From: Halogeometricum borinquense DSM 11551
GTDB lineage: Archaea; Halobacteriota; Halobacteria; Halobacteriales; Haloferacaceae
Length of the DNA stretch: 32,000 bases
Direction of reading: 5' to 3'
Assembly (NCBI RefSeq): GCF_000172995.2
Contig: NC_014736.1
Location: forward strand, 60,001 to 92,000
Shown one piece after another: positions 3,412 to 31,637 of this stretch. Every line of letters starts with the position of its first letter. The stretch's first letter is position 1. The translations under genes and the position numbers were made by a program. Under the pieces are notes generated by a model that made no database searches, was not told the DNA's origin, and saw only the letters and a program-made list of their open reading frames with translations.

Positions 3412-4393
3412 TTAGATGTGCGTCATTGATGACTCACTGATAAAATGCATTCGATGAAATGATTTCACGATCCAAGAGATCGGTCCACCCTGTCCAATAC
3501 GAATTATTCAAACACGACGACTGTGGCCCCGTCAAGAATGAATGTGATCGTGCGTGCGCGCTACCTTAAGACCAAGAGCGACTCAGTAGGTGACCGGAGT
3601 CAACTAAGCGAGCAATCGGTCAGGCTAACGTGACATTCATCGAAAAGTATATGTTATCATACCACACACAAATGAACGGGGAGGCAGGGACAGATCGGTG
3701 GTCGGATTTCCCATACTCCCACAGAGGCACCTACTCCGTGGTTTGCTCCCAGCGGTTCAGGGTGGGCGAGTTTTCGCCACCGGGCACCCCACCAATACTG
3801 GGGGCATCCACTACTCGTTGCTAGCAGTTCCCGTGACACTTTACGCTGGAGTGTTCAGTGGATTCGAGTTCCTTCTGTAAGGGACGACGAAGTTCGAAAA
3901 GTCGATGAAACCAAAACCAGATTGTCCCGAGTTACACCTCGTATATTAGTACTACAAAGAAGCTATGCTCATCTGTCACTACTATATCCAGATGTAGTTA
4001 TATATTTGAAGAGTTGAACGGATAATAGCCAGAGATAAGATCTTTTTGCCTCTACCGAGAGATAGTGAGATAAAAAGCCGCTCGTTTGTCACGAAATGGA
4101 AGAGAGCAAATTTCCAAGAACCATCAGCAGTCAGCAGAGCAATGTAGCCGATCTGCCCGAATGGTTTATCATGACATGCGAAGCGTGATATTCGGAGTAT
4201 TACTGTCTGTAGACAGTCAAGATCATCATCTTTATATCTCGGAAGACATTTCAATGTACTAAGTAAATGTGTGAATCGAAAAATACCGGTCTGGGTCTTT
4301 CTTTCCAGTCCGTGCATGTAACCGGAGTTCTTGGAGAGAGAATCGGTCACCGGCTCATCAAACCAGTACACCAGTCAACCCATCTATAAGAGC

Positions 4394-5670: not shown

Positions 5671-8600
5671 GTGGCACGCGGGAACACTAACAGCGAAGCA
5701 CATATGACTCGAGAACGCTCAAACCTCACGCTCGAATCATCCGGTCGTGATATCGGCACACTCACCGACACTGACGCGGTCAACTCGATAGACCCCGCTG
5801 TTACGTCTCTCGCAACGACAGGCGGTCTCGAACAGCGAATCAGTTCGATTGCAACGCTCGATACGGCACGTCTCGGTGGGACGTTTGCACAGCGAATCAT
5901 CCGCAAGCGAGGTGCAGCCACCCTCATCTTTCGGTCGTTGCAGAACGCCGTCCAAGACGACACGCCCGACGAAGCCGAACCATCGGATGACTTCTACTCT
6001 ATTTCGTATCCGTCTCTCGAAGAAACATATCCACAGTACGACTCGGAAACTCCCGAGTGGGAAACTCCGGACAGCGGTACGGCACGTGCTGACCCTCCGC
6101 TACGAACAACACGTCCCAGCACCCCGGACCTCACTGTTCAACAATCGGACGCTCCGCAACCGCAAACACACGAAGTCACCCAAAATCCCAACTCGCTCCA
6201 GTCGGAGGCGGCGCCGGACCAGACAGCGCAGAGTTGGCTCGACGAAGACAGCGATACACCAAAATCCGGAGTGACAGCCGAGGCTGAAACTGAGTCCGGA
6301 CAGCACAGAACGGATACCCCGTCTAGCGTCGTCTCAACACCAACCACTAGCGGACAGAACAGCGGGCGTGCCGGGAGCCACCGGCCATCAGTAGAGCGTA
6401 CCGACGCTGCCATTCGAACAGTTAGCCAGCAGCTTCGTCGCGTAAGCCGCCGAGCCACGGGCGCTCGAACCGTCCTCGTGGACCAAACCGATACCGACTC
6501 GACGACGCTCGCTGGCCAGTCCAACCAGCCGTTATCCACTCTCACTGGTCAAACCAACCAGCAATCAACCACGCCCACTAGTCAAACGAACCGACAGCCC
6601 ATCTCGACGGATGAATACCGTGCAGGCGACAGCAACAGACAACAGCAAACGCCGACAGTCGCACCGTCTGCATCGTCTCCCTCGCCCACAGTTCTGTCCG
6701 AACACGAGACAGAATCGTCCACATCATCCTCGACCAGCGGTAAACGGATATCTAACCAGCGGACAGCGCACGAATCGCGACTCACGGGCACGCAACACGA
6801 AAGCGGACACTTGCAAGGTTCGAGGGCGAGTACGCCCAAGGCACGTCAGCGACGCATTCCCCGAACCGATTCGTCGCAGTCACCTACTGCAGGTACGACG
6901 ACCGCCCACGAGACATCGGTCAACCGCTCGGCAAACCCCCAGAAATCGAACGGGCAGCGATCCGCGCTGTGGACACCCGCTGCCACTGCTTCGAACCGCT
7001 CACCAGAATCAGCAGTACGGGCATCACCCACGACAGAGAGACCAAACAGTACCGAGTCAACGACGCAGCGTTCACTGTCGGGGTCACACGAGCGATCAGC
7101 TTCGAGTACTTCACTCCGAGCCACTGCGTCTACGATTCCAGGCCCGGATGTCGAAACCCCGGTGCGTGCGACGACACGAACCCGTGGAATAGCCGCAGGA
7201 CGGGAATCAAATCAGACCCTAACCAGTCCCAGTCGAACGGCCGCAGAGCGCGAACCAACTCAGCGACCGAGTGGAACGACGGTGACAGCGAGCGATTCAT
7301 CGCAGCCAACCGCCCCCACAGCAGACAGCGGTCCGTTCCAGCCATCGTTAGGAGTAACCCCGACGACAGTACTAGACACACCAGTTCAACGACAACCGGG
7401 AAGTACGCAAGAGAGTGCAGTCCAGCGTGCCAACTACGAGTCGGCGACGACATCGACACGGACGCGCGTTGTCGATACGACGAACGCAACTACCGCAAGT
7501 CCAGTCGAATCTACGAGTCCGACGGACAGTGATTCGACGCCGTCGAACCGAGACTGGTCAACGCCAACCAGCACGCCGACGCAAGGATCGCGACGGACAC
7601 TCACCCGAGTATCCGACACGGGCACAGGGAAGGAGCGCACCGCCGAGGGTCAACTTCGTTCACCGTGGTCGCAGTCGCATTCCTCTCAGATGAAGACAGC
7701 AGCAGACACATCGGCCACATCGACCACAGCAGCCACATCGGGCGACCGCGTCGGGTCCATATCGGGAGCGATAGAGACTGCAAATCGGGCGCGAACCGAA
7801 ATCGCCGAGAACGACTCGTATCCGAACAGACCGACCGCGAGCAGTACGGATCCATCTACAGCAGCCGACAGGCTCAGCAGGCAGGAGTTCGGGGAGGTGG
7901 ACACCGCAAACCGAGCGAGAACCCAAACGAGAACTGGTGTCTCTGCGAGCGGCACGGACTCGAGCGTCCCGGCCACAAGGAGTTCGGCCACCTCCGAGTC
8001 GGCTAACGGACTCGACAGTCAGGTGTCGAACCGGTCGGGATCAGTTGCCCCGGAGAACTCAACTCGTCCGAACTCCCACGTTCAGAGCCAGCGAACTGCA
8101 ACACGTACGATAGATCATCTAACAGTACATCGCCTGTCGAGTCAGTCAGCGATCACAGACGGGACAACCGGAAGTAGCCTCCAGCGAACCCACGCGATGG
8201 GTGGTGCGAAACGCGCACTCACAGCGGGGACTCAAAGACGGCCGGAGACATCGACTACTCGCCGCGAGCAGGTGAGCGACAGTTCTCCGGCGCAACCGAC
8301 GACACAGAGTGCCCAGTCGGACACCGCACTGTCCGCGGGCGACGTCCGCGCGCGTGACAGTTACGCCACTGGGGCAACTCGCACCCGCTTCAGACAGCAT
8401 GCAGAGTCGCAATCGCTCCAAGCACTTGATTCGGGAAGTAATCGGGACACGGAATCGCCGTCGCCATTGTCGTCGCCGTCTACTGACGATATCACCGCTA
8501 GTGAGGGGCGCATCACCAGAGCGAGTCGTACCGAGGCAGTACAGCCCAGCGATTCCCACTCCGTCCAACCGCTCAATGCCGGTGACCGTCGAGCCACAGA

Positions 8601-11600
8601 GTCGTCGCCGACCATCGACGATGTGAGTTCTCGCGGGGAACACACCACCGAAACAGGTCGGTCTCAGACAGGGACCCGTCTGTCGAACCAGTCGGCGGTC
8701 GCAGATGTTCCAACCGGCGGAATCATCCAGCGAACTCACACACTGGGAAGTGTCGAACACCGGCTTACATCGACCATTCGAGAACACTCACTCATGTCGG
8801 GAACGAACCGCAAACAGGTGAGTGCACGGTCACGACCGCAGTCGGCCGCGACGAAAGTGCGTACCCAGTCAGGTACGTTGCCGGCGGCCGGCAGCAGCGG
8901 TTCTCGTGAGGGAGCCACCAGCGAGGCAGACGGTGCCCGCGCTGTACAGCACACAGAATCCCGTTCGCCACAAGCACCCGATGTTGGCGAGGGGCGAAGT
9001 ACACAGTCGGTCTCGCCGTCGCTGTCGGAGTCACCTGCTCAGTCCCGAGGTGTTCAGAAAACATCCCAAGCGAGTCGCCGGTCTACAGGAACGCCGGAAC
9101 TGTCCACTGAAGCACCCGAGACTCAACAGCCGGTGCGCCACTCATCCCACACAAACGTCCCTCCGGCTACGAACGTACCTGTCACTACGAACACCACTAC
9201 TGCGACCACACCCCACGCCACGAATTCGTCCTCTACGACGACGACCCCGCAGACGACGAATTCCGCCGCCACTACGAGCACCCCTCGCACTACGGACTCC
9301 CTTCGGGCGCGGCACGCGCAGAATACAGCCGAAAGCGGAGAGACAACGGCAGAAAGCGGGGAGATAACGGCATCTCGTCGGGAAGAACAGCGAATCAGGG
9401 AGACGACCCCACACCTGAGAGACCAGCGCTCGTCCAACGTTCGCAGCCAAGCGCGGGGGCAACCGACGACACAGACCGGCACACGCACTGTCGCACTACC
9501 TACGGTCGAGTCTGGGATTCGGAGACCGAGTGCAACAGACCCCGATAGTCGAACGTGGACAGATCAAGTGTCCACCCACGGGACGGACGAGACAGCCTCA
9601 GGTCGATTGCGGAACGTCGATGCGCCCACCTCTCTCCAGCAAACGTTCACGCAAGGGGGGCAAGCTCGGTCGCCGGCCCCCAGCCAACCCGCATCCGCTG
9701 AGATAGTGTCGGGAGCGGAGACGCAGTCGTCTGATCGTCCAGCGCTCATACCGCGGTCACGGCGGCGCAGTCAGCGACCTTCCAACGAGTCCACCCCCGG
9801 CAATCGTGACACTCCCACGGACCCAAGCCGTGATGTCGCAACCGGAGACTACTCGACGGATACGGACGCGTCGCTCCACGAGGACGAGTTCCGTCCACAA
9901 CAGTCGGTCGGATACGACACGCCCGGATGGTCCAACGAATCAAGTCCGCTCACTGCTCTCGGGATGTCGGACGCAACTGGGAAAACAGGGCTGTCGGTAA
10001 TTGGACACGAGGTGTTCGAACGCGCCAGTCGATCCAGCCGACTCGGTAGCCGAACGAATCCGACCAGCGGCCGAACGAATCCGACCAGTGGCCGAACGAC
10101 GACCGATTCGGAGGCCCGACGCGTCGTCTCGCCGGGGTCTCCTGACGCACCGTCGTCAGAGACGAGAACGTCCCGTACGACAGTCTCCGATCACTCGAAT
10201 CATCAGTCTGCTCGTCCGCCGTCAACCGACTCCGTAGAGGACGCGGCATGGGACGTGTCATCCCAGTTGGCGCGTACAGCAACGCAGTACGCTGCAAACG
10301 TAGCGGCCAACCGTCGGAGCCAGCAATCGGAGTCCGTCCCCAAAACGGTAGCACAGAATGTGCGCCGCTCGGATGCTCCCCGTAACGACGTCAGTGAGCC
10401 AGCGTCACAAGTGACAAGTGGGCAAGAGACCCGGGACCCTGTGCAGAATCCAGATGCACCGGGCAACAACGCTCAGACGGAATTCAAGTACTTGCAATCA
10501 GCTCCATCGGCAAGCCAGAGATGGGCAAACGAAGGAGCGTCCGGACAGGCGTCGCCAACGAGTGGCACGGTCCGTCAGAGACAGAATATCGGTGGTTCAG
10601 GATTCGAGACAGCTGTTGTGCAGCGGTATCAGCCAGCCGCGGTTAGCACGCCAGCCTTGGATTGGGTTTCCGAAACGATGCAGTCTGATGCGACTCAACT
10701 GGCACAGTCGCACCGCAGTCACTCGAACGAGTCGGGACAGAATCCGGGTGGAAAGACGCTTCGAGGACGCGCCGGCGGAACAGACGATCCGACCGCACTG
10801 GTGCGTGGGAGCGCACCGTCGTCTCCAGCGGTCGATCAGAGACAGCACCGAAGCGCTAGCGAAACGAGTGCGCGTCAAGCCGTTCGTCAACGAGGCGCGT
10901 CTGAGAGCGAAACCGTTCCCCAACCGGGCGCGTCCGAGGCCGACACCGCTCGCCGACCGAACGTATCCGGAGGCGACGGGGAAATGCCAACGCCGAGTGT
11001 GAACCCACGGGCGTCCGAGAGAGTATCATTCCCGACTGCGCTATCGTCGTCTAGGCGTTCGGCTACAAAGACCCGTTCCACGCGGACAGAGGCCTCGACC
11101 GGTATCTCCGCAAAGACATCGTCCGCCGATTGGCCCACCCAGTCATCAGAGACGCTGTCATCAGCCACGGCGGTAAGCGATGATACCGAAAGCGCTGTGC
11201 AACGGTCTAGGACGGGGAACTCTGTGAATCGGTCAGGACAACCGAATCTGACTGGAGCGAGTGAGATAGCAGACACGAGCGGGGCATCACCGAGCGTCTC
11301 ACCCGCTGCACGGGTGTTCGCCCGAGCAAACAAAGCTCGTACCGCGGTTGAGGGAACTCGTACTTCGGCCGAAGGGGCTCACACTTCGGGTGAAGATACC
11401 CGCTCTTCGGCTGAAGAGACACAGACAACAGTCGAAGGTGCCCAAGCCAGAGTCGAAGCAACCCGTACTGCGGTCGAGGGAACCCGGACGACGGTCAGAG
11501 AGGCAACCGATGACGGGAACGCTAATCGAGATGGCTCAGTAGTAGATTCCGGTGTGAAATCGGAATCCGATAGCGACAGAGCGGATTCGACTCGGTCCAG

Positions 11601-12282
11601 TCCGTCGATGAGCGGCGGGATAGTGGCCGGCGATAAAACATCACTTGGCGAAAAAGTTAAATATAAAAACAGGAATATCGAATATAACACCACAGATGAG
11701 GGACGGAGCAGGAAAACCAGTGGAGTCGAGCGGATGAGCATGCCGAAACCACAGACTGAGCCGTCACTCGTATATCGACAGGAGCGTTCGCCTGCTACGG
11801 GTCAGCAGAACGACGACCGCGTCGCCGGCGACACTCAACGCGCTGGTCTGACTGGCGAATCGCTGCACGGTCAGCCAAGAGCGAACCAACAGCAGCCATC
11901 GCACATGGCGCGTTCCTCGACTCGCCAGGGCAACTTCACCAGCGGGGTAGGCACGAATCAAGGGCCAACTGAGCAAGACCGGCATGGAATCCAACGACAA
12001 GGCACTGCGTCCCATCGCGGTGATACGGTCAGCGGTTCTCCCTTCGACTCTAACGGCCCACAGAACACGGATCTACGTTCCGCAACCTCACAAACAGGTG
12101 TCAGCGGGCATCCCTCTGAGAACGACCACTCACAACGTGCCCAAGGTCGTATCGACGACCTCGATATTCAGCTGAGCGACCAGTCGCTACAACTCAACGC
12201 TGACGTTGACCGACTGGTCGATGTACTGTACCGGAAACTAGAACGCAAACGCCGGATGGAGCGACAACGGAGAGGATTCTAA
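5671..12282 (+). CDS. Giant (~2200 aa) low-complexity R/S/T/Q/P/A-rich protein in the tape-measure position of the CIS operon; function unknown
   Basis: A single 6.6-kb open frame, while all competing ORFs on both strands are under 200 aa. The start is uncertain (GTG 5671 or ATG 5704). The stop TAA at 12280-12282 abuts the ATG of the LysM gene at 12283. There is no N-terminal signal peptide or TM segment. Most of the protein is compositionally biased. Only the first ~100 aa and the last ~60 aa (IDDLDIQLSDQSLQLNADVDRLVDVLYRKLERKRRMERQRRGF) look like ordinary helical protein. Confidence 0.8.
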   Translation: MARGNTNSEAHMTRERSNLTLESSGRDIGTLTDTDAVNSIDPAVTSLATTGGLEQRISSIATLDTARLGGTFAQRIIRKRGAATLIFRSLQNAVQDDTPDEAEPSDDFYSISYPSLEETYPQYDSETPEWETPDSGTARADPPLRTTRPSTPDLTVQQSDAPQPQTHEVTQNPNSLQSEAAPDQTAQSWLDEDSDTPKSGVTAEAETESGQHRTDTPSSVVSTPTTSGQNSGRAGSHRPSVERTDAAIRTVSQQLRRVSRRATGARTVLVDQTDTDSTTLAGQSNQPLSTLTGQTNQQSTTPTSQTNRQPISTDEYRAGDSNRQQQTPTVAPSASSPSPTVLSEHETESSTSSSTSGKRISNQRTAHESRLTGTQHESGHLQGSRASTPKARQRRIPRTDSSQSPTAGTTTAHETSVNRSANPQKSNGQRSALWTPAATASNRSPESAVRASPTTERPNSTESTTQRSLSGSHERSASSTSLRATASTIPGPDVETPVRATTRTRGIAAGRESNQTLTSPSRTAAEREPTQRPSGTTVTASDSSQPTAPTADSGPFQPSLGVTPTTVLDTPVQRQPGSTQESAVQRANYESATTSTRTRVVDTTNATTASPVESTSPTDSDSTPSNRDWSTPTSTPTQGSRRTLTRVSDTGTGKERTAEGQLRSPWSQSHSSQMKTAADTSATSTTAATSGDRVGSISGAIETANRARTEIAENDSYPNRPTASSTDPSTAADRLSRQEFGEVDTANRARTQTRTGVSASGTDSSVPATRSSATSESANGLDSQVSNRSGSVAPENSTRPNSHVQSQRTATRTIDHLTVHRLSSQSAITDGTTGSSLQRTHAMGGAKRALTAGTQRRPETSTTRREQVSDSSPAQPTTQSAQSDTALSAGDVRARDSYATGATRTRFRQHAESQSLQALDSGSNRDTESPSPLSSPSTDDITASEGRITRASRTEAVQPSDSHSVQPLNAGDRRATESSPTIDDVSSRGEHTTETGRSQTGTRLSNQSAVADVPTGGIIQRTHTLGSVEHRLTSTIREHSLMSGTNRKQVSARSRPQSAATKVRTQSGTLPAAGSSGSREGATSEADGARAVQHTESRSPQAPDVGEGRSTQSVSPSLSESPAQSRGVQKTSQASRRSTGTPELSTEAPETQQPVRHSSHTNVPPATNVPVTTNTTTATTPHATNSSSTTTTPQTTNSAATTSTPRTTDSLRARHAQNTAESGETTAESGEITASRREEQRIRETTPHLRDQRSSNVRSQARGQPTTQTGTRTVALPTVESGIRRPSATDPDSRTWTDQVSTHGTDETASGRLRNVDAPTSLQQTFTQGGQARSPAPSQPASAEIVSGAETQSSDRPALIPRSRRRSQRPSNESTPGNRDTPTDPSRDVATGDYSTDTDASLHEDEFRPQQSVGYDTPGWSNESSPLTALGMSDATGKTGLSVIGHEVFERASRSSRLGSRTNPTSGRTNPTSGRTTTDSEARRVVSPGSPDAPSSETRTSRTTVSDHSNHQSARPPSTDSVEDAAWDVSSQLARTATQYAANVAANRRSQQSESVPKTVAQNVRRSDAPRNDVSEPASQVTSGQETRDPVQNPDAPGNNAQTEFKYLQSAPSASQRWANEGASGQASPTSGTVRQRQNIGGSGFETAVVQRYQPAAVSTPALDWVSETMQSDATQLAQSHRSHSNESGQNPGGKTLRGRAGGTDDPTALVRGSAPSSPAVDQRQHRSASETSARQAVRQRGASESETVPQPGASEADTARRPNVSGGDGEMPTPSVNPRASERVSFPTALSSSRRSATKTRSTRTEASTGISAKTSSADWPTQSSETLSSATAVSDDTESAVQRSRTGNSVNRSGQPNLTGASEIADTSGASPSVSPAARVFARANKARTAVEGTRTSAEGAHTSGEDTRSSAEETQTTVEGAQARVEATRTAVEGTRTTVREATDDGNANRDGSVVDSGVKSESDSDRADSTRSSPSMSGGIVAGDKTSLGEKVKYKNRNIEYNTTDEGRSRKTSGVERMSMPKPQTEPSLVYRQERSPATGQQNDDRVAGDTQRAGLTGESLHGQPRANQQQPSHMARSSTRQGNFTSGVGTNQGPTEQDRHGIQRQGTASHRGDTVSGSPFDSNGPQNTDLRSATSQTGVSGHPSENDHSQRAQGRIDDLDIQLSDQSLQLNADVDRLVDVLYRKLERKRRMERQRRGF
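8128..8478 (+). repeat. Module A of a diverged ~117-121-aa internal duplication within the giant ORF
   Basis: HRLSSQSAITDGTTGSSLQRTHAMGGAKRALT...QVSDSSPAQ...RFRQHAESQSLQALDSGSNRDTESPSPLSSP aligns by eye with module B: TRLSNQSAVADVPTGGIIQRTHTLGSVEHRLT...QVSARSRPQ...RAVQHTESRSPQAPDVGEGRSTQSVSPSLSESP. Confidence 0.6.
8674..9036 (+). repeat. Module B of the diverged internal duplication within the giant ORF
   Basis: See module A. The shared skeleton is RLSxQSAhxDxxTGxxhQRTHxhGxxxxLT ... QVS ... QHxESxSxQAxDxG. Confidence 0.6.
9325..9372 (+). repeat. Coding 21-nt tandem repeat (about 2.3 units; TAESGET/TAESGEI)
   Basis: acagccgaaagcggagagaca / acggcagaaagcggggagata / acggca. The two full units match at 17 of 21 positions. 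Confidence 0.65.
10050..10099 (+). repeat. Coding 21-nt tandem repeat (about 2.4 units; RTNPTSG)
   Basis: ccgaacgaatccgaccagcgg / ccgaacgaatccgaccagtgg / ccgaacga. There is one mismatch between the full units. The protein reads SRTNPTSGRTNPTSGRTT. Confidence 0.8.
11335..11502 (+). repeat. Coding degenerate 21-nt (7-aa) tandem repeat, 8 units
   Basis: ARTAVEG TRTSAEG AHTSGED TRSSAEE TQTTVEG AQARVEA TRTAVEG TRTTVRE. The heptad periodicity is read directly from the translation. Confidence 0.7.
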
Positions 12283-22950: not shown

Positions 22951-24378
22951 ATGGGATTTCGGACCGCACGAGAGAACACCACCGAGACCGAGCGGTCCTC
23001 GATATGGAGCCGCGACGAATCGGACTCGTCACGGCACCAACGCCACCGTCGGGGGCCTCGCTTCACGGCCCAAGAGTGCGAGGACTTGTTCGGGATCGAC
23101 ATGTACATGGACGGGCTGGAGGTCAAAGTCCAGCGTCTCGCCGATAGCCACGGCGCGGGCCAAGTCCGGCAGTGGGCCGACGAGGGAATGACCGTGGACA
23201 CGATGGGCAAACCGCGCGACATGCGCGCGTTCCGCGAGCGCCAGAAAGAACGGCCCGCGGAAGTACCCAAAGATATCGAGCGGCGGAACGCCAAATCTGT
23301 CCAGCGCAGTCGCGGCGCGCATCATGAGGCGTCGAAGGCTGGCGACGCGAACGTGCCCGATTCGGTTCGGGATATTATCTCCTCGCCCGGCCAGCAACTC
23401 GATGCAGGTATTCAGCAAGCGATGGAAGAGCGCATGGGTGACAACCTGGGCGACGTGCGCATCCACACAGGCCCACAGGCCGCGAAAGCCTGTGAAGACA
23501 TCAACGCCCGCGCGTTCACCGTCGGGAATCACATCGCGTTCAATCACGGCGAGTATGATCCGAGTTCGGCAGAAGGCCAGCACGTGCTTGCCCACGAGTT
23601 AGCGCACGTTCGCCAGCAGACCGGCGGCGCAGTGTCGATGCTTCCGCAGACGGGTGCGTTGGAAATCGACCCCGACGAGCGGCTGGAGCGTGAGGCTGAG
23701 GAGACCGCTCAACGCGTGATGCAAGGCGGGAAAATCGGCGTCCATCGGATGCACAACTCCGACGTGCATATTCAGCGAATGCCCGCCGACATGGTCCCAG
23801 AGGCACTGGAGATGTTCAAAGCCGAGAACCAAGGCGGTGCCGTCGGATCGTTCCAACAGCGTCAGAATCAAGAACGCATCGAGTTCATCGAAGAGCAAGT
23901 CGAGCAGAAGCTCAAGAATCTGGATACTCTCCAGAACTCGCTGACCGACCAGGACGAACAAATACTCGATGCTCGGGCTGAGGGAGAGGAAGAACTCGTC
24001 GCTGATCTCCAAGCAGCGAAGACGGCAATCCAAGAGCGCATCAGCGAACTGTACGCCACCATCGAGGACAAAGCCGACCAGATCGCGTTGACCGACGAAC
24101 AACGCGAAAAGTTGTACGGTGACACCGACTTCGACGGTGGCGAGTTCGCCATGGAGTTCGGCTGGACACTGTTCAAAGCGGGCATGTCTCTCGTTCCTGG
24201 CTTTGGCATCGCTATCGCTGGGCTCGAAATCAGCGAAACGCTGTTCCGAGAGACGATGAAACAAACCGACGGGTCACTCGCTGAACGACTCACCCAGACT
24301 ATGGACATCCTCGTCAAGAGCGGCAAGACTGGAACGGGAGACTCGCAGGGTGTCGGTAGCAGTAGGAGGGATGCATAA
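22951..24378 (+). CDS. Full-length DUF4157-domain (HExxH, zincin-like) CIS effector candidate with coiled-coil and C-terminal hydrophobic module
   Basis: 475 aa. The DUF4157 core spans about nt 23353-23620: [97 protein letters not shown] is encoded at 23593-23607. After DVHIQRM (23761-23781) come a heptad-rich acidic region and a Gly-rich hydrophobic segment, [25 protein letters not shown] (24157-24231). The exact start is uncertain (alternative ATG at about 23101). Confidence 0.85.
23491..23781 (+). repeat. Homology stub, copy 1 (3' half of the DUF4157 domain plus linker up to the HIQRM junction)
   Basis: The 291 nt recur at 25292-25582, with about 23 mismatches by hand alignment, mostly at third codon positions. 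Nt 23644-23722 are identical to 27398-27476. Confidence 0.85.
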
Positions 24379-25277
24379 TGGATGGACTAATTACTGGAGA
24401 AAATGACGAGCGGGTTGGACTCAGCGTTATCGACAATAACGACGTTGAGCACGTCATTGAGATGGAGTTCGATGGCGAAATCAAATATCACGAGCAAGAC
24501 GGGTATCCGGATGAGCCACTGAAGCGAACGAACGAAGGGGCAGAACACGTCAACCAGGCTCGCCGGTACGCCAAGTGGCATGTCTACCGTGAGCGAGGAT
24601 ACGAGACGGTCCCGCCGACGGAAAACCCCGACAGCCTTCTGGCAGCGTGTATCGCTGTTGCTCGACTGTCTGAGACCGCGTTCGAAGACGCGTTCGGGGA
24701 TATCGAAGCCCAGATACGGAGTCACTACGACGATTCGACGGTCGAGTTGCCGTTTGCCGATGCCGATGGAAGTGATATACTCGTCTACAAGAAAGATATC
24801 GCGGTCCGTCCGGACCCGATGACGTTTGATCCACCGGTACTCGAACAGTTCCTCGGGCAATTCAGCGGTGACTCAGACTCCCCAGTGGTTCCAGCGAAAG
24901 CTGATCTTGACCGCGAGGTGTTCGACGACCTTGATTTCGAACTCAAAAGCGTCTCGGGGATGCACTACCTCCACAACGACGGGTACGACAACGAGCGAAC
25001 CGTCCAGAGCAGCCAGCGACTCGGCACAGACCCAGATGCGACTGTTGAGATGATTCCGGTTGACCCAGCTGAGTTCGGTAATTTCCAGCACTACGTTACT
25101 TCAAATCTGATTTACCAAGCTCGAGATGTGCTCCTTCGCATGGGAGTCAAACCACCGATCGCGTTCCGGGCTCAAGGACAAGGAAAGTACCGAGCAACAC
25201 TCGAACAACAAGCCTGCCCACAGTACGAGAATTACTGGGACGCGACAGCAGATATCCAGTCGTGGGAACCGAAGTAG
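24378..25277 (+). CDS. Effector-partner protein 1 (uncharacterised acidic family; immunity or chaperone candidate)
   Basis: TAATG overlap with the effector stop, and GGAGG lies just upstream. 299 aa, with no TM segment. Family motifs are ITGENDERVGLSVIDNNDVEHVIEMEFDGEIKYHEQDGYPD...EHVNQARRYAKWHVYRERGYETVPP and a C-terminal FQHYVTSNLIYQARDVLLRMGVKPPIAFRAQGQG. Confidence 0.8.
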   Translation: MDGLITGENDERVGLSVIDNNDVEHVIEMEFDGEIKYHEQDGYPDEPLKRTNEGAEHVNQARRYAKWHVYRERGYETVPPTENPDSLLAACIAVARLSETAFEDAFGDIEAQIRSHYDDSTVELPFADADGSDILVYKKDIAVRPDPMTFDPPVLEQFLGQFSGDSDSPVVPAKADLDREVFDDLDFELKSVSGMHYLHNDGYDNERTVQSSQRLGTDPDATVEMIPVDPAEFGNFQHYVTSNLIYQARDVLLRMGVKPPIAFRAQGQGKYRATLEQQACPQYENYWDATADIQSWEPK

Positions 25278-26338
25278 TCCACAGGCAGGACTGCGAGGAC
25301 ATCAACGCCCGCGCGTTCACCGTCGGGAATCATATCGCCTTCAATCACGGCGAGTATGATCCCACGTCACCGGAAGGCCAGCACGTCCTCGCTCACGAAC
25401 TCGCGCACGTTCGCCAGCAGACGGGCGGCGCAGTGTCGATGCTCCCGCAGACGGGCGAGTTGGAAATCGACCCCGACGAGCGGCTGGAGCGTGAGGCTGA
25501 GGAGACCGATAAACGCGTGATGCAAGGCGGGAAAATCGGCGTCCATCGGATGCACAACTCCGACGTGCATATTCAGCGGATGGGGGCTGGCGAGTACATC
25601 GATGGGGCGTCCATCGGCGGGATGATTGAAGCGATTGCGAGCGAATCGGAGTTAGAACCAGACGAAGTCGCCGCAATCGTCGAGAATTACAAGGTCAGTG
25701 GGACGGTTCACAGTGGAGCCAAAGGCCACGACGCACTGAACCTCAAGGCGCTGAAAGAGGCCCAGAACCTGTTGGAAGAGGCAGACATCGCTTCGGATAT
25801 CAACCAAGAGTTACTGGCGGAATTAGAAGACTCGGACCTGCGTGCTGACCTCGCAATCTCCGAGATGAAAGCTGACCGAGGTCGTGAAAACGGCAAGGGA
25901 CTCGAACACTTCGACAGCCCTGAAGAGGCCTTCGAGACGGTCAAAGAGTTCCAAAACGACCAAGAGAAACTCGAACAGCGGCTTTCAGAGTTGGACAACC
26001 GGCTGAAACAGACGATTGGCCGGTCGAATATCCGGCTCTCCGAAAAGCAGAAAGAGACGCTGGAAAATCTCGCCGACCAGGTCGACAGCCCGTATTCGGG
26101 GCAGGCAGTCAGCATTCTGCTGAACTACATGTCGGTCGCGTCTACTGAGAAGACACTGTCGGGAATCCTTGCGACTGCAACGTCAACCGGTCCAATGGGT
26201 GGTGTCATCCTAGCTATGGGCGTGGTTTCGACCATCACCACTATACTGCCGCAAGTCGTCTCCATGCTTGAGAGCGGTCTGACTACCCGCTCGGACGATG
26301 ATACCACTGAGACGGACGATTCACGGGGTCTGACATAA
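25262..26338 (+). CDS. Orphan effector cassette 2: 5'-truncated DUF4157 stub plus divergent coiled-coil/hydrophobic C-terminal module
   Basis: The open frame is headed only by a GTG that overlaps the last 16 nt of partner gene 1. Homology to the full-length gene begins at 25292 ([17 protein letters not shown]...[65 protein letters not shown]). The N-terminal ~180 aa of the full-length protein are missing. The C-terminal hydrophobic stretch is GILATATSTGPMGGVILAMGVVSTITTILPQVVSML (26162-26269), followed by a 22-aa acidic tail. It may be a silent cassette rather than an expressed gene. Confidence 0.65.
   Translation: MGTEVVHRQDCEDINARAFTVGNHIAFNHGEYDPTSPEGQHVLAHELAHVRQQTGGAVSMLPQTGELEIDPDERLEREAEETDKRVMQGGKIGVHRMHNSDVHIQRMGAGEYIDGASIGGMIEAIASESELEPDEVAAIVENYKVSGTVHSGAKGHDALNLKALKEAQNLLEEADIASDINQELLAELEDSDLRADLAISEMKADRGRENGKGLEHFDSPEEAFETVKEFQNDQEKLEQRLSELDNRLKQTIGRSNIRLSEKQKETLENLADQVDSPYSGQAVSILLNYMSVASTEKTLSGILATATSTGPMGGVILAMGVVSTITTILPQVVSMLESGLTTRSDDDTTETDDSRGLT
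25292..25582 (+). repeat. Homology stub, copy 2
   Basis: See copy 1. It begins 15 nt after the TAG stop (25275-25277) of partner gene 1 and ends at the HIQRM codons (25568-25582). Confidence 0.85.
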
Positions 26339-26339
26339 G

Positions 26340-27317
26340 ATGAAGGCAAAGATAACCGGCGAAGATGATGTTCGTGTGGGACTCCATGTTACTGACAATA
26401 ATGGAGTAAAGCACAAGATCGAGATGGAGTTTAATGGTGAAATTAAATACCATAATCAAGACGGCTATCCAGACAAGCCGAAGAATCGAACACCCAATGG
26501 AAATGCACACGTAAACCAGACCTGTCGATACGCCCGCTACCACGTCTATCAAGAGACCGAGTACACCCCACTCCCACCCGAGGAAAACCTCCCAGGAATC
26601 AAGAAGGTCAAGCAGGCAATTGCGGACCTCTCAGTCAAGGAGTTTGAGGCGTACTTCAGCGATACCTACGACCAAGTGCTATCAAACCATCCAAGTGTCA
26701 CTCCACCTGTTCCACATCCAGAATCAGTCCCGCAGAATGGATACATCCTCTACCTGATTGACGTGTACCTCGACGACAACGACGAAATCGAGGCTGTCTC
26801 GGACATCCACCTCCAGTATCTGGACGAAAATGGTGACAAAACCCAGGACTGGAACGACGACCCATTCCCCGACCGGCAGCCCGACGCCCGCCTCCAGCTC
26901 TTCGGAAAGTATGTTCCATCGATGGATGTGTTTCAAGAGTTCGTCGTCTACCATCTCCGGTGTCAACTTCGGGATGTCTACATCGGGGCAGGTCTGGAAC
27001 CACCTGAAAAGTACCGGGTTCTTGGACGTGGCGATGACGACCTCACGAGTCGTTACCACAACGATAAAGTAACTATCTACGACGACTACCACCTCGAAGA
27101 AGCCGACATCCCCGGATACGAACTTGAGTTCGACTACGGATTTGGGGAACTCGGTAAACAAAGCGTCATCAACGCCAAGCGAAAGGGAATCGGCGCTGAG
27201 AATCCAGACGACGCTGATAGTAGGTTAGCCAATCCATCACAGGATGGAGAAGAGGGACTGCTCGAAACGGTATCATCGGTACTCCGAGGGAGCGACACTG
27301 ACCAGACCGAGACGTAA
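26340..27317 (+). CDS. Effector-partner protein 2 (same family)
   Basis: The ATG lies 1 nt after the cassette 2 stop. 325 aa: ITGEDDVRVGLHVTDNNGVKHKIEMEFNGEIKYHNQDGYPD...AHVNQTCRYARYHVYQETEYTPLPP ... FQEFVVYHLRCQLRDVYIGAGLEPPEKYRVLGRG. Confidence 0.8.
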   Translation: MKAKITGEDDVRVGLHVTDNNGVKHKIEMEFNGEIKYHNQDGYPDKPKNRTPNGNAHVNQTCRYARYHVYQETEYTPLPPEENLPGIKKVKQAIADLSVKEFEAYFSDTYDQVLSNHPSVTPPVPHPESVPQNGYILYLIDVYLDDNDEIEAVSDIHLQYLDENGDKTQDWNDDPFPDRQPDARLQLFGKYVPSMDVFQEFVVYHLRCQLRDVYIGAGLEPPEKYRVLGRGDDDLTSRYHNDKVTIYDDYHLEEADIPGYELEFDYGFGELGKQSVINAKRKGIGAENPDDADSRLANPSQDGEEGLLETVSSVLRGSDTDQTET

Positions 27318-27355
27318 TCTCGGGGAACCCTTCTAAACAACAAATTTGTGGGCCC

Positions 27356-27535
27356 GTGCACGTGCGTCAACAGACTGGTGGTGCGGTAAGTATGCTCCCG
27401 CAGACGGGTGCGTTGGAAATCGACCCCGACGAGCGGCTGGAGCGTGAGGCTGAGGAGACCGCTCAACGCGTGATGCGTGGTGGGGAGCTGGGCGTGAAAC
27501 CGCTCAGTCAGACTGAGTACCACATTCAGCGGATT
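27356..27535 (+). repeat. Homology stub, copy 3 (partial)
   Basis: Nt 27398-27476 (79 nt) are identical by eye to 23644-23722 of copy 1. The flanks are diverged. It ends at the HIQRI codons (27521-27535). Confidence 0.8.
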
Positions 27536-28252
27536 CCAGAGGGAACAGCGGAATTCTACGAGGGCGTCATCGACGCGATCAAGCGCGAGTCAGCTCTCAC
27601 GGACGACGATGTCGAGCGGATTAAGGACGAAGTGGCGCAGGACGTGGCTGGAACAGACTACGCTGGGGCGAAAGGCCACGACGAATTGAACGTGAAGGTA
27701 CTCGAAAAAGCCCAGCAGAAAGCCCAACAAAAAGCCGAGGAACTCGGCGCTGTCGATAAGGTGAACAAAACGCTTGCAGAGTCCGATCTGGTGCGTGGAA
27801 ACAATGAATCTGGGAACATCGATAGCCTCACCGACGGGGAGAAATCGGCGATGGATGTCGTTCACGAACAGGCACAGGTCGAAAAGACGCTCGACGAACT
27901 GGACGCCGAACTGAGTTCCCTACTCTCCGACGAGAACATCCGACTGACAGCGACTCAGGAATCCGAAATCAAGTCTCTCCAGCAGAAGCTGGCCGAACAA
28001 TTCGACTCCCCCGTCGCCGAACTGGTCATCACGTGGCTGCTGGACAACCTTACAGGGGCAGCGACGAGCGTAACGAGCCTCTCGGCGCTGTTCGCAAAAG
28101 AGATGGGCGCGGCAGATGCATCGACCGCTGCCGGTGCGATCGTCATGGCTGTCTCGATGGGCCTGGCGCTGTTCGTCAAAACCATAACCACTGACTACGA
28201 TGTTGGTGATGATACTGGCGCAGAAAACGATCCGACTGGGGTGAGAGAATGA
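27356..28252 (+). CDS. Orphan effector cassette 3: more deeply 5'-truncated stub (starts at HVRQQTGG) plus divergent C-terminal module
   Basis: The GTG-headed frame starts 38 nt after the partner 2 stop: [59 protein letters not shown]. The first His and the Glu of HExxH are missing. The C-terminal module is related to cassette 2 (AGAKGHDELNVKVLEKAQ vs SGAKGHDALNLKALKEAQ; FDSPVAELVITWLLDNL vs VDSPYSGQAVSILLNYM). Its hydrophobic segment is AAGAIVMAVSMGLALFVKTI (28127-28186), followed by a 21-aa acidic tail. Confidence 0.65.
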   Translation: MHVRQQTGGAVSMLPQTGALEIDPDERLEREAEETAQRVMRGGELGVKPLSQTEYHIQRIPEGTAEFYEGVIDAIKRESALTDDDVERIKDEVAQDVAGTDYAGAKGHDELNVKVLEKAQQKAQQKAEELGAVDKVNKTLAESDLVRGNNESGNIDSLTDGEKSAMDVVHEQAQVEKTLDELDAELSSLLSDENIRLTATQESEIKSLQQKLAEQFDSPVAELVITWLLDNLTGAATSVTSLSALFAKEMGAADASTAAGAIVMAVSMGLALFVKTITTDYDVGDDTGAENDPTGVRE

Positions 28253-29115
28253 TGGACGGAGATATCATCGGTGAAAACGAAGACGGTATCGGTGTCGATG
28301 TTTCGGATAACAACGAGATCATACACGAGATCTCGATTGAAAAGGGTAGTTGGGAGATCGTATACCACGAGCAAGACGGCTACCCTGACAAGGCAGCCAA
28401 ACGCACGCCAGATGGTAACGAGCACGTCAACCAGGCGAGAAGATTCGCTCGGTATCACGTGTACAAAGAACGCGGCTACGAGACGTTCCCATGGGACGAA
28501 CACATCGGATACATCGAAACTGTCGGTGATGCCATCAAGAGCCTCTCAACCGAGGAGTTCGAGGACTACTTCGGCGAGTTCTACGAGACGGTTGCTGGCT
28601 CGCTCAGCCTCAACAGTGGGGGAGACATCACAGCTCTCTTCGCGGCGATCCAAGAGAAGGCCAACGCGTACTACATCGACGTGTACCTCGACAACGATGG
28701 ACAGGTAGAGGCAACCTCAGAGGTGCGGCAGATAATTCCTACCGACGACTGGCAAGAGGAACTCGAATCACCGCCGGAAGACACCGACCGCGTTCCTGAC
28801 GCACGCATCGAATTGATGCCGATGCCGCTGCCATCGATCGAGTTGTTCCAGCCTATTGTTGTCCACCAGACGAGATGCCAGATTCGAGACTGCTACATCG
28901 TCATGGGCGAGGAACCACCCGAAGAGTATCGCCTACTGGGCTTTGGGAAGTACAAATTCGCCTCGCTCTATCAGCGAGGCGACCTCTCGCTGTACGAGGA
29001 CTACACCCGTCTCGACGCCGACATTCCTGGCTACACGGTCGGCCTCGGCCTCGAAGAGTACCCAGAAATCGAAGGACAGGTCAAATCGCTGTTGTCGGCG
29101 TTCGCCGACGAATAA
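28249..29115 (+). CDS. Effector-partner protein 3 (same family)
   Basis: ATGA overlap with the cassette 3 stop. 288 aa: IIGENEDGIGVDVSDNNEIIHEISIEKGSWEIVYHEQDGYPD...EHVNQARRFARYHVYKERGYETFP ... FQPIVVHQTRCQIRDCYIVMGEEPPEEYRLLGFG. Confidence 0.8.
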   Translation: MMDGDIIGENEDGIGVDVSDNNEIIHEISIEKGSWEIVYHEQDGYPDKAAKRTPDGNEHVNQARRFARYHVYKERGYETFPWDEHIGYIETVGDAIKSLSTEEFEDYFGEFYETVAGSLSLNSGGDITALFAAIQEKANAYYIDVYLDNDGQVEATSEVRQIIPTDDWQEELESPPEDTDRVPDARIELMPMPLPSIELFQPIVVHQTRCQIRDCYIVMGEEPPEEYRLLGFGKYKFASLYQRGDLSLYEDYTRLDADIPGYTVGLGLEEYPEIEGQVKSLLSAFADE

Positions 29116-29169
29116 CCTCCCGTGGCTTCTTGTTTGGCGTGTGGTTCTGGCTGCGATGTGTCCAGCACT

Positions 29170-29289
29170 GTCGAGTACGACCCGAACTCCGCGGAGGCCA
29201 GCACGTCCTCGCTCACGAGCTCGCGCACGTTCGCCAGCAGACCGGCGGCGCAGTGTCGATGCTCCCGCAGACGGGCGAACTCGAAATCG
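29170..29289 (+). pseudogene. Fourth DUF4157 stub remnant, frameshifted and lacking any C-terminal module
   Basis: The sequence gtcgagtacgacccgaactccgcggag-gccagcacgtcctcgctcacgagctcgcgcacgttcgccagcagaccggcggcgcagtgtcgatgctcccgcagacgggcgaactcgaaatcg aligns to [38 protein letters not shown] of copies 1 and 2. One base is missing in the gaa-ggc codons (around 29196-29198), so EYDPNSAE and [11 protein letters not shown] fall in different frames. Homology stops at about 29289, and AT-rich sequence follows. Confidence 0.7.
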
Positions 29290-29535
29290 CCCACCGAAAT
29301 CGGTTCCATACTATCCACCAGATATTATCATGGACTACTATTTTGTCGATCAGAACGGATCAATCCTGATGCAGAGTATATCAGTAACGAAATTCAAGAA
29401 AAGAGACAGATCCGAATTGTTGATCCAAACACGTGAAATCGGAAGAGACGCGTAACCAGCACGCTCAGTAGTTCTCATCCCGACTGTAACCACAGATCAC
29501 CGCTGTGGGAGGTTAGTCCGCACGAGATCGAGAGA

Positions 29536-30501
29536 TTACGCTAGCAAATACGAACCAAGTCTTTCGAGCGCATCCACGCCCTGTGCTTCACCCTCCAACT
29601 GCGGCACACAGTTGATCGGCACTGAAAACCGCTCCTCAACCGCTTCGATTCGGTCTCGATGCCGCTCGGCATCCCGCTGGCATCGGTCACAACGACAGCC
29701 GTCGGGATTCTCGAAGACGCGATTCACCACCACACAGTCGGAGGGAACTGATGCCTCGTCAAGCCTCTCGACCAACCGCTCAGCTTCAGCAATTGCCATA
29801 CGCTCTGGAGTGAGCACCACACAAAAATGAGTCCGTGACGGATCACGCAACACCTGCTGAACGGACCCAACGCGCTCTTGGAGCGACACTACCTCGTCAG
29901 AACCACTATTTGAACCCCAATATGCTGCCGGGCCGAAAAACACGCTTTTGGCCGCCTGTGCAGTCCGCCGAACGCGCCGTTGAACTTCGCCAGCAACGCC
30001 GAGTGTCTCCCCGAGCACTTCTGGCAAGTCGAGTAGTCGGAGCGTATGCCCAGTCGGTGCAGTGTCGAATACGACGTGGCTGTACCCGGCGTCGGCGTAG
30101 CGGGCGATGTACTCCAGAGCAGCCACCTCATCGCCACCCGGTACGAGTCCGGCCTTGAACAGTCGCTCCAAATCGTCGTCATCCAGTCGCAGTCCGGCGT
30201 CTCGAAACTCGTCGGCGAGTGCCTCAACGACGTGCCGGTAAGCCTCCTGTCCGGTTTCGGCATCAACTTCGATGGCAAACAGTGAGTCAACAACCTCCGT
30301 GGGTTCTCCACTGAGTTCTTGTTCGAAAGCGTCGCCGAGTGAGTGGGCAGGATCAGTTGAGACCACGAGTGTGTCTCCCTCACGCCGTTTCGAGAGCGCG
30401 AGAGCGTGCGCTGCCGCACAGGTCGTCTTTCCGACGCCACCTTTCCCTCCGTACAGAACAATGTCGGTTTCGTCACCGTGCGGATGCTCTGTCTCGGTCA
30501 T
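29536..30501 (-). CDS. arsA: ArsA/Get3-family P-loop ATPase
   Basis: 321 aa. It has the deviant Walker A motif GGKGGVGKTT, STDPAHSLGD, and the signature DTAPTGHTLRLLDLP. A Cys cluster CRCDRC contains a CxxC like the Zn-bridging motif of Get3 dimers. Confidence 0.9.
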   Translation of the reverse strand: MTETEHPHGDETDIVLYGGKGGVGKTTCAAAHALALSKRREGDTLVVSTDPAHSLGDAFEQELSGEPTEVVDSLFAIEVDAETGQEAYRHVVEALADEFRDAGLRLDDDDLERLFKAGLVPGGDEVAALEYIARYADAGYSHVVFDTAPTGHTLRLLDLPEVLGETLGVAGEVQRRVRRTAQAAKSVFFGPAAYWGSNSGSDEVVSLQERVGSVQQVLRDPSRTHFCVVLTPERMAIAEAERLVERLDEASVPSDCVVVNRVFENPDGCRCDRCQRDAERHRDRIEAVEERFSVPINCVPQLEGEAQGVDALERLGSYLLA

Positions 30502-30638
30502 TGCGTTGGTGTAGGGTCTGTAAGGTTACAAAGGCGTGGGCGGCCCTCATCGCGCGTGTGCGTGAGTAGAAAAGCGTGCGCGAGTAGAAGCAGGGCGAAG
30601 ATGAGAGAGAACAGGAGTGAGACAGTAGCGCTCGGAGG

Positions 30639-31637
30639 TTATAGATCCGGCCGTGGTGCGAGTCCGGTCCAGTCGATAATCGCGTGCTCGCTGTGGTAGT
30701 TCTGGAGTTGGTCGGCGCGTTCGTAGCGGCCAGTGAACGAAGTGATGCCGTGGCCCGTCACTTGCGCGTCGCTCGGTGGTCGAACCCCCATGCCGACGTA
30801 GCAATCTCGGAGTTGGCAGCGGAAGTGATCGACCAGGGTTCGCTGGAACGCTGCCACGGAGATAATCGGCGTATGGTCTGGTGTAAGTTGGATGCGGGCA
30901 GCGAGCGTGGCATCCTCGTCCGGTTCCGTCCCGTCACCGTATTCGATGCGTGTCGGTCCGTCTGTATTCCAGTGGACACGGAGCGGAGAGATAACGCGGA
31001 GGAACTGCTCGCTGGACGCATCTTCAGTAAAGGTGGACTCAGATGTCGAGAGCACGCGGTTCAGACGGGAGAACAGGTCCGAATCTTTCCGGTCAGGACG
31101 GACATCAAGTGCCTGTCGGATTTCTCCGAGGCTGTTCAGTTCGGCGAGGACTTCGGCGAGTCGCCGGATCTCCTCGGTATCCAAGGTGAGGTGAATGTCC
31201 TGTTCGATGAGTTCCCAATCTGCGTCTGGCGCTACCTGTGGAGGTTCCACTGGCGGGGTATCGTTCGTCCGGAGAGCGGCGAGTTGGTCGTAACAGGTCG
31301 TGAGATGCGATTCGAGTGTGTCCTGAGCCATCGCGCCGATCAACAGTGTCGTGACGGCGAGTCGGTCGGGATCAGCGATCTGATCGGATTGACTGTACGG
31401 TGAGAGGGCGTTAGATCCGGTTGTGCGGGTGAGATAGTACTTCGCAAAACGTTCGACGCGAGCCAAGCGCTCTTTGACCCCTAGTGATCGGTCATCGCTG
31501 TCGGGAAAATGTTGGTCACACCAGTGGTCTGTGACCTCCCCTTCCTTAGAGAGGGTGAGGTGGTGTTGTACATCATCATGGTCGGTGATTCGAAGCTCGA
31601 CTGTACGGTCCGTTTCGGAGTGTTCGGTGACGTTCAT
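30639..31637 (-). CDS. Effector-partner family paralog 4 (divergent, stand-alone, opposite strand)
   Basis: 332 aa. It shares the family skeleton: VELRITDHDDVQHHLTLSKEGEVTDHWCDQHFPD...ERLARVERFAKYYL at the N-terminus and FQRTLVDHFRCQLRDCYVGMGVRPPSDAQVTGHG near the C-terminus. Compare FQxxhVxHxRCQhRDxYhxxGxxPPxxYRxxGxG in partners 2 and 3. The overlapping + strand ORF 30684..31403 is a shadow. Confidence 0.8.
   Translation of the reverse strand: MNVTEHSETDRTVELRITDHDDVQHHLTLSKEGEVTDHWCDQHFPDSDDRSLGVKERLARVERFAKYYLTRTTGSNALSPYSQSDQIADPDRLAVTTLLIGAMAQDTLESHLTTCYDQLAALRTNDTPPVEPPQVAPDADWELIEQDIHLTLDTEEIRRLAEVLAELNSLGEIRQALDVRPDRKDSDLFSRLNRVLSTSESTFTEDASSEQFLRVISPLRVHWNTDGPTRIEYGDGTEPDEDATLAARIQLTPDHTPIISVAAFQRTLVDHFRCQLRDCYVGMGVRPPSDAQVTGHGITSFTGRYERADQLQNYHSEHAIIDWTGLAPRPDL

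Follow-up and report, generated by a model that had tools for sequence, protein, structure and literature searches.

The window analysed here, a 32,000-nucleotide stretch of plasmid pHBOR03 of Halogeometricum borinquense DSM 11551 (contig NC_014736.1, positions 60,001 to 92,000), contains the operon of a contractile injection system (CIS) and, directly 3' of it, three toxin open reading frames (ORFs), each followed by one partner ORF encoding a protein of about 300 residues. A fourth relative of these partners lies further downstream. The four related proteins, encoded at 24378–25277, 26340–27317, 28249–29115, and 30639–31637, are the subject of this work; all four ORFs are present as originally predicted from the DNA, and only the last is on the minus strand. 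All belong to the Pfam family DUF7958 (PF25858), and those on the plus strand are very probably the immunity proteins of the toxins beside them.

The array is composed of one full-length toxin with its partner, two N-terminally truncated “orphan” toxin–immunity cassettes, and a terminal relic. Toxin 1 (22951–24378, plus strand, 475 aa, Hbor_38720, ADQ69186) matches the DUF4157/eCIS_core model of Pfam with E = 1.7e-31 and has an N-terminal extension, a complete metallopeptidase-like domain (aa 149–226), and a C-terminal module that is variable and helical and includes a hydrophobic segment; partner 1 (24378–25277, plus strand, 299 aa, Hbor_38730) is its putative cognate immunity protein. Toxin 2 (25262–26338, plus strand, 358 aa, Hbor_38740), heading the first orphan cassette, lacks the N-terminal ≈ 170 residues and the first 29 positions of the DUF4157 domain, matching the eCIS_core profile at positions 30–78 only, and precedes partner 2 (26340–27317, plus strand, 325 aa, Hbor_38750, ADQ69189). 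Toxin 3 (27356–28252, plus strand, Hbor_38760), a 298-aa ORF annotated as 286 aa, does not match eCIS_core because it begins within the HExxH motif (HVRQQTGG), leaving no intact metallopeptidase site; it is followed by partner 3 (28249–29115, plus strand, 288 aa, Hbor_38770). The junctions between toxins and partners are as first described: TAATG at 24376–24380, TAA-G-ATG at 26336–26342 (a one-nucleotide gap), and ATGA at 28249–28252. The fourth member (30639–31637, minus strand, 332 aa, Hbor_38800) is a divergent DUF7958 paralogue with no toxin upstream.

The locus tags used here were assigned from gene order rather than read from the annotation. The CIS cluster of H. borinquense, Hbor_38640–38890 on the 210-kb pHBOR03, comprises two structural subclusters separated by an “interspacing region” of about 8.7 kb with nine genes, Hbor_38720–38800, of which Hbor_38720 and Hbor_38740 contain a DUF4157 domain (Zachs et al., Sci Adv 2024, PMC11566945). 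The seven proteins that we looked up have GenBank accessions all within the consecutive series ADQ69186–ADQ69194 (nine accessions), the span from 22951 to 31637 is also 8.7 kb, and the pattern of DUF4157 domains agrees; on this basis positions 22951–31637 should correspond to Hbor_38720–38800, with the toxins as Hbor_38720, 38740, and 38760, the partners as Hbor_38730, 38750, and 38770, and the fourth member as Hbor_38800.

The kinship of the four proteins, which had been proposed from a shared sequence skeleton, survives proper alignment statistics, with BLASTP E-values from 3e-65 to 2e-10: partners 2 and 3 are 42% identical (E = 3e-65), partners 1 and 3 are 35% identical (E = 4e-41), and the fourth member matches partner 1 with 23% identity (E = 2e-10) and partner 3 with E = 3e-15. 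The skeleton itself, an N-terminal motif and a C-terminal FQ..VV...RCQ.RD.Y...G..PPE.YR.LG.G, is visible in the alignment, except that the fourth member has only part of the N-terminal motif. Across 122 family members little or nothing varies at the Q-x-R-D, PP, and G-x-G positions. The family had been taken for an uncharacterised one, and here the earlier description has to be replaced, since it is DUF7958 and two of its members have a published immunity role. The PF25858 assignment is precomputed for the product of 30639–31637 and for protein P0001, which is 100% identical to partner 1, and is carried by 120/120 of the listed homologues; a profile built from the 122 members scores the four window proteins at 280–424 bits.

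Searching 1.84 billion representative proteins with this 122-sequence profile (HMMER) gave 194 proteins at E ≤ 0.001. The named homologues and all 74 recovered genomic loci are from Halobacteria only, and many of the species with DUF7958 loci are on the list of CIS-encoding strains in the supplement of Zachs et al. (PMC11566945). No match to the four proteins was found in local copies of Pfam (E ≤ 0.1), NCBIfam, PHROGs, or PADLOC, including SUKH, Imm-Ank, Colicin_immun, and other Imm families; the empty Pfam scan is due to the scanned copy having no PF25858 model, and beside other haloarchaeal DUF4157 toxins these searches and annotations do pick up SUKH, Ank, and Colicin_immun proteins. DUF7958 or PF25858 is not mentioned in the literature that we searched, which did not include Makarova et al. 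(2019, mBio 10:e00715-19). Some homologues are larger: P0172 carries TPR repeats at its N-terminus, joined to a complete DUF7958 domain, and P0190, P0235, P0251, P0258, and P0263 are proteins of 590–800 aa with a DUF7958 part and no other Pfam domain found.

As had been noted from the sequence, the partners have no transmembrane segment or signal peptide: no 19-residue Kyte–Doolittle window exceeds 1.2, and the maxima of the four proteins lie between 0.68 and 1.17. They are also acidic, as stated at the time, but this is no distinguishing feature, because every protein checked, including the ArsA-family ATPase encoded nearby, has an isoelectric point (pI) of 4.2–4.9, as expected for a haloarchaeon. 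The AlphaFold2 model of partner 3 is confident, with a mean predicted local distance difference test (pLDDT) score of 91.3 and a predicted TM-score of 0.89; it combines two sheets, one N-terminal with four strands and the other small, with several helices and, in addition, a long conserved helix bearing the Q-x-R-D motif. Neither the solved structures of the PDB nor the viral structures of BFVD contain a match to this model (Foldseek, E ≤ 0.001), and a PDB sequence-profile search with DUF7958 gave 0 matches. Matches of the model to Hsp70 substrate-binding domains are noise (E of 0.1–1, TM-score ≈ 0.1, root-mean-square deviation of 14–20 Å).

The immunity role is already published for two of the four proteins, Hbor_38750 and Hbor_38770. 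Introduced alone into Haloferax volcanii, Hbor_38740 and Hbor_38760 gave no stable transformants, while tandem constructs with Hbor_38750 for the former and Hbor_38770 for the latter were transformable and gave a detectable product (PMC11566945). The same study showed that H. borinquense lyses H. volcanii, which needs contact and an intact sheath gene; that Hbor_38720 is part of the CIS-dependent secretome, in which neither Hbor_38740 nor Hbor_38760 was seen; and that Hbor_38720 is not toxic in H. volcanii. No DUF7958 protein was reported among the nine CIS-dependent secretome proteins. The original prediction of immunity proteins and of antagonism of archaeon against archaeon is thus borne out by results published for this very locus: toxicity, rescue by the downstream gene, and contact- and CIS-dependent killing. 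The genes are the same, Hbor_38750 and Hbor_38770 being the toxicity-preventing “downstream partners” of Zachs et al.; their text and supplement do not mention the homology of the partners, a family name, orphan cassettes, or the repeat block described below, and do not single out Hbor_38800. Since toxin 3 is toxic although it lacks the HExxH site, toxicity lies in the C-terminal module. The absence of the N-terminal part of the secreted, full-length toxin would explain why Hbor_38740 and Hbor_38760, though toxic, are unsecreted.

The C-terminal modules of toxins 2 and 3 are 33% identical (BLASTP, E = 1e-19), and that of toxin 1 is not related to either by BLASTP. In all three the hydropathy peaks near the C-terminus (Kyte–Doolittle, 19-residue window), at 1.56 in toxin 1 (aa 407), 1.97 in toxin 2, and 1.96 in toxin 3. 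The module consists of long helices followed by a hydrophobic, helical segment rich in small residues, and probably acts by damaging membranes. The AlphaFold2 model of toxin 3 is all-helical with a pLDDT of 67.6, and Foldseek found no significant structural match to it; among the non-significant matches are the α-pore-forming toxins ClyA, YaxB, and AhlC (E ≈ 1), which we regard as a lead only. The modules are diverse well beyond the window, with 110 of them, taken across loci, falling into 43 clusters at a normalised score of 0.3.

This diversity is mirrored in the partners. In 110 non-redundant pairs, the similarity of the toxin C-termini correlates with that of the partners (Mantel r = 0.72, reached by 0/2000 permutations), and the correlation is unevenly distributed along the partner. 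It is highest at aa 121–180 of partner 3 (r = 0.74, mean pairwise identity 19%) and at aa 236–288 (r = 0.68, 18%), and lowest in the N-terminal 90 residues (r = 0.37), which have a mean pairwise identity of 47%. The pattern fits a protein with a constant frame and variable regions of specificity.

We then turned to gene neighbourhoods, covering 151 complete DUF7958 members in the 74 genomic loci plus the window, with ORFs searched using the family profile and an iterated DUF4157 profile. A DUF4157-bearing ORF lies directly upstream (−80 to +30 nt) of 113/151 members; 11 are too near a contig end to judge, so that the fraction among evaluable members is 113/140, and the homologues are not, as might have spoken against a functional link, widespread away from DUF4157 genes. 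Toxin and partner are most often separated by −4 nt (35 cases) or +2 nt (27 cases), and the upstream toxins are full-length in 71 cases and N-terminally truncated in 36. For the remaining 27 members no upstream DUF4157 ORF could be detected: about ten come after a short, probably more deeply truncated ORF with a hydrophobic tail, five share the type of the fourth member, and a handful lack any toxin ORF. Many of these loci have arrays of three to five cassettes.

What occupies the position 3' of the toxin depends on the toxin. In H. borinquense a DUF4157 toxin with a GH-E nuclease domain is followed by the gene of an ankyrin-repeat protein, and in Haloarcula a DUF4157 toxin with a deaminase domain is followed by the gene of a SUKH protein. 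From gene order and domain content, this position behind haloarchaeal DUF4157 toxins appears to be an immunity slot, its occupant matching the toxin domain in type. As other DUF4157 toxins precede the matching known immunity types, DUF7958 is tied to one kind of C-terminal module and not to DUF4157 itself. The Haloarcula locus, from Haloarcula sp. S1CR25-12 (L078, 5869–6995), follows the same array logic with unrelated toxin and immunity families: after the deaminase toxin and the SUKH gene come an orphan colicin-D module, the gene of a Colicin_immun protein, and an eCIS_core relic of 70 aa.

The cassettes of the window are also linked at the DNA level. A repeat search found that a block on the plus strand at 23490–23781, encoding the 3' part of the DUF4157 domain and the linker, recurs at the head of each cassette, with copies at 25291–25582 (92% identity) and 27358–27495 (86% over a 138-nt core), and once more after the last cassette at 29195–29292 (94% to the copy at 25375–25472), all on the plus strand; overall the block is 86–96% identical. 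The last copy lies in a frameshifted relic of the block (EYDPNSAE…, 29170–29292, plus strand) with no toxin module or immunity gene behind it. Two small ORFs run over the relic, one at 29122–29436 and the other with the tail of 28875–29369; one of them is probably annotated as Hbor_38780, which was expressed without effect (PMC11566945).

The repeated block is the presumed substrate of recombination, and comparison with other genomes supplies an exchange that falls within it. On plasmid pHl5678-1 of Haloferax larsenii, in a homologous CIS locus, the full-length toxin is made of two parts: residues 1–278 are 86% identical to toxin 1 and residues 219–506 are 94% identical to orphan toxin 3, with the crossover within the repeated block. 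The gene behind this toxin encodes a partner with 88% identity to partner 3, and an orphan cassette of H. larsenii carries a toxin-1-type module (66%) with a partner-1-like gene (61%). In a second H. borinquense strain, flanks with 95–96% DNA identity enclose an array of four to five different cassettes, whose partners are 40–62% identical to those of the window. Cassettes therefore swap slots between species and genera and vary between strains. A constant N-terminal domain with variable C-terminal modules, an adjoining immunity gene 3' of the toxin gene, orphan cassettes sharing a homology block with the full-length gene, and strain variation between conserved flanks are together the features of polymorphic toxins sensu Zhang et al. 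(2012, PMC3482391).

Taken together, we consider it very probable that the three plus-strand proteins are cognate immunity proteins of polymorphic toxins fired by a membrane-anchored CIS resembling a type VI secretion system (T6SS). Each cassette would encode a toxin C-terminal module, probably damaging the cytoplasmic membrane, and a translationally coupled, soluble DUF7958 protein that binds its own toxin module in the cytoplasm and blocks its action, whether in the producer itself or in a sister cell that has been hit; the toxin would act on the membrane from the cytoplasmic side. Specificity would reside in the variable middle of the partner (≈ aa 121–180 of partner 3) and in its C-terminal tail, with the N-terminal 90 residues and the Q-x-R-D/PP/G-x-G helix–loop serving as the constant frame. 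The N-truncated orphan cassettes may be held in store behind the repeat block and moved to the expressed slot by homologous recombination.

Several points weigh against this reading. Among bacterial systems it is unusual for immunity to a membrane-active toxin to come from a soluble protein, an objection raised in the original prediction and weakened here since an archaeon with one membrane and no periplasm would have its toxins meet that membrane from the cytoplasm. With a toxin 3 model of moderate confidence and without a significant structural match, “membrane damage” draws on hydrophobicity and on the published lysis phenotype. The published rescue is a transformation assay alone, with the tag on the downstream protein rather than on the toxin, and covers cognate pairs only; partner 1 was outside these tests, and its toxin is not toxic in H. 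volcanii (PMC11566945). Binding between partner and toxin is our inference, for which the co-variation is supporting evidence and not proof, because linkage within a cassette would by itself produce it. Finally, for Hbor_38910 and Hbor_03000, the other validated partners, the C-termini deduced from the published primers matched none of the proteins that we had fetched.

An alternative that we think rather unlikely is a dual role, in which the DUF7958 proteins provide immunity and also stabilise the toxin before loading, the complex coming apart at the spike or when the system fires. In its favour, soluble partners accompany toxins with hydrophobic helices, the tight translational coupling suggests co-folding, and the N-terminal 90 residues barely track the toxin type and so could dock to a constant component; added to this are the published rescue (PMC11566945) and the prospect that, with no periplasm, free toxins could insert into the producer's own membrane from the cytoplasm. 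The missing DUF7958 proteins in the CIS-dependent secretome are compatible with release before firing and lend the idea no positive support. That the partners are instead chaperones or adaptors like Eag/DUF1795, which shield the hydrophobic helices and hand the toxin to the spike without any true immunity, is very improbable, even if the same structural points apply and the rescue could be explained by sequestering the hydrophobic segment: the window cassettes hold two genes each, with no third gene as a separate immunity candidate, yet sister cells must survive; intact partners are kept beside N-truncated orphan toxins, the two here unsecreted, which would be pointless for a loading chaperone; and the handful of members without an upstream toxin ORF is what one expects of immunity. 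Moreover, bona fide immunity families occupy the same position after other DUF4157 toxins. Eag/DUF1795 proteins share with DUF7958 that they are soluble partners of effectors with hydrophobic helices; they differ in sequence and fold (no DUF1795 or other Pfam match in the library scanned, no PDB fold match), and here the partner gene lies 3' of the toxin gene instead of 5' of it and the hydrophobic segment is at the C-terminus, unlike in Eag systems. The DUF7958 partner, with no separate immunity gene at its side, itself neutralises toxicity (PMC11566945).

The fourth member stands apart from the preferred picture of cassette immunity. At 21–26% identity to the cassette members it forms its own subfamily, and full-length orthologues with 66–76% identity are found in Haloferax larsenii, H. 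elongans, Haloferax sp. S1W, and Natrinema sp. H-ect1. Its gene always occupies the opposite strand and is transcribed divergently from an adjoining conserved gene of ≈ 415 aa, the first of the sheath subcluster. No other gene separates the two structural subclusters in Natrinema sp. H-ect1, where a DUF4157 and DUF7958 pair sits at the far end by an AAA ATPase. The baseplate proteins of H. borinquense and H. larsenii are 73–85% identical, a divergence about that of the fourth member, which is 96.7% identical between the two H. borinquense strains with differing arrays. Given this fixed place, baseplate-like divergence, and identity across strains, the fourth member is therefore part of the conserved backbone of this cluster clade and not a cassette immunity gene; it may be an orphan immunity gene that became fixed, or else an accessory factor. 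The adjoining 415-aa protein was considered as a toxin-like partner and rejected, since it lacks a Pfam match and a hydrophobic segment and does not resemble the toxin modules.

Whether it is nevertheless an ordinary orphan immunity gene like the other three, having lost its toxin, we regard as possible but on balance doubtful. As a member of the family it has retained the invariant residues, toxin-less DUF7958 members occur elsewhere, and fixation over a long time would also suit a “public” immunity gene. Against loss of a toxin from a cassette like the others speak its orthologues in Haloferax spp. and Natrinema, which agree in place and orientation, its baseplate-like pace of divergence, its constancy across strains whose cassettes differ, and its separate subfamily. 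A more speculative proposal, and quite an unlikely one in our estimation, is that the constant N-terminal frame of DUF7958 docks to the injection machinery or to the DUF4157 toxins, so that the Hbor_38800 type would be a core accessory factor of this clade of archaeal T6SS, such as a loading adaptor or regulator, and the ancestor of the polymorphic immunity proteins, and the new fold would couple immunity with effector loading.

Bacterial contact-dependent inhibition (CDI; cdiA-CT/cdiI) and Rhs loci have a full-length toxin followed by 5'-truncated modules, each with its immunity gene, and a homologous block that permits replacement. The array in the window shares this orphan-module architecture and differs in three respects: delivery is by an archaeal CIS, the shared block corresponds to the 3' end of a metallopeptidase-like domain, and most modules and all partners come from one toxin and one immunity superfamily rather than from many unrelated ones. 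Immunity proteins of pore-forming colicins and of membrane-active T6SS effectors are membrane-embedded or periplasmic. DUF7958 resembles them in protecting against a toxin that probably targets the membrane, and differs from them in having no hydrophobic segment or signal peptide. The closest relatives on the toxin side are the Photorhabdus virulence cassette (PVC)-metallopeptidase toxins, in which, likewise, the N-terminal DUF4157 domain is constant while the toxin modules at the C-terminus vary, and for which H. borinquense was named as a species with several (Zhang et al., 2012, PMC3482391). In that survey many PVC-type toxins had no adjacent immunity gene and most immunity superfamilies were absent from archaea; here, in contrast, a dedicated archaeal immunity family fills the slot.

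As fights among archaea with injected toxins and cognate immunity were established for this locus in 2024, the present results open no new question. What they add is the assignment to DUF7958, the reading of two cassettes as orphans, a fold without a match, and the recognition of the fourth member as a distinct, conserved paralogue. In Pfam, DUF7958 is a domain of unknown function, and the tie to the published immunity experiments is made in this analysis; with it, some 190 representative halobacterial proteins can be read as probable immunity proteins. The orphan-cassette reading may explain the published puzzle of toxins that are toxic but unsecreted, and the exchange of cassettes between genera and strains is documented, with the conserved paralogue set apart from the cassette members. 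The fold, confidently predicted and without a solved relative, is one that would neutralise a probably membrane-active toxin from the cytoplasm.

The CIS operon upstream of the array is encoded on the plus strand and includes the genes of a tube-LysM protein (starting at 12283), the gpD hub (12954), a VgrG-like spike with an oligonucleotide/oligosaccharide-binding (OB) domain (13979), PAAR (14750), gp25 (15050), two baseplate-J proteins (15445 and 18533), and a Tail_P2_I protein (20587). Before it, at 5671–12282 (plus strand), lies an ORF of 2203 aa without a Pfam or NCBIfam match and without a hydrophobic segment, with a composition odd for a haloarchaeon (15% Ser, 14% Thr, 10% Arg). By accession order it would be Hbor_38630, just outside the published cluster, in which no tape-measure homologue was found (Zachs et al., 2024, PMC11566945). 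This ORF sits between the tube-LysM gene and a six-transmembrane gene, a 409-aa ORF at 4331–5560 (plus strand) with six hydrophobic segments in aa 38–247 followed by ≈ 160 soluble residues, which fits what has been described for Hbor_38620, the putative membrane anchor.

The gene of the ArsA-family ATPase (Pfam E = 2.4e-72), at 29536–30501 (minus strand), separates the cassette array from the fourth DUF7958 gene. It is present in both H. borinquense strains (97% identity), is not found at that place in H. larsenii or Natrinema sp. H-ect1, and has 82% DNA identity to a gene on a plasmid of Haloferax mediterranei. Further upstream in the window, 1400–2134 (plus strand) encodes a 244-aa protein with a CBS domain and a weak match to Swt1-like HEPN (E = 0.0045, below the Pfam cut-off).

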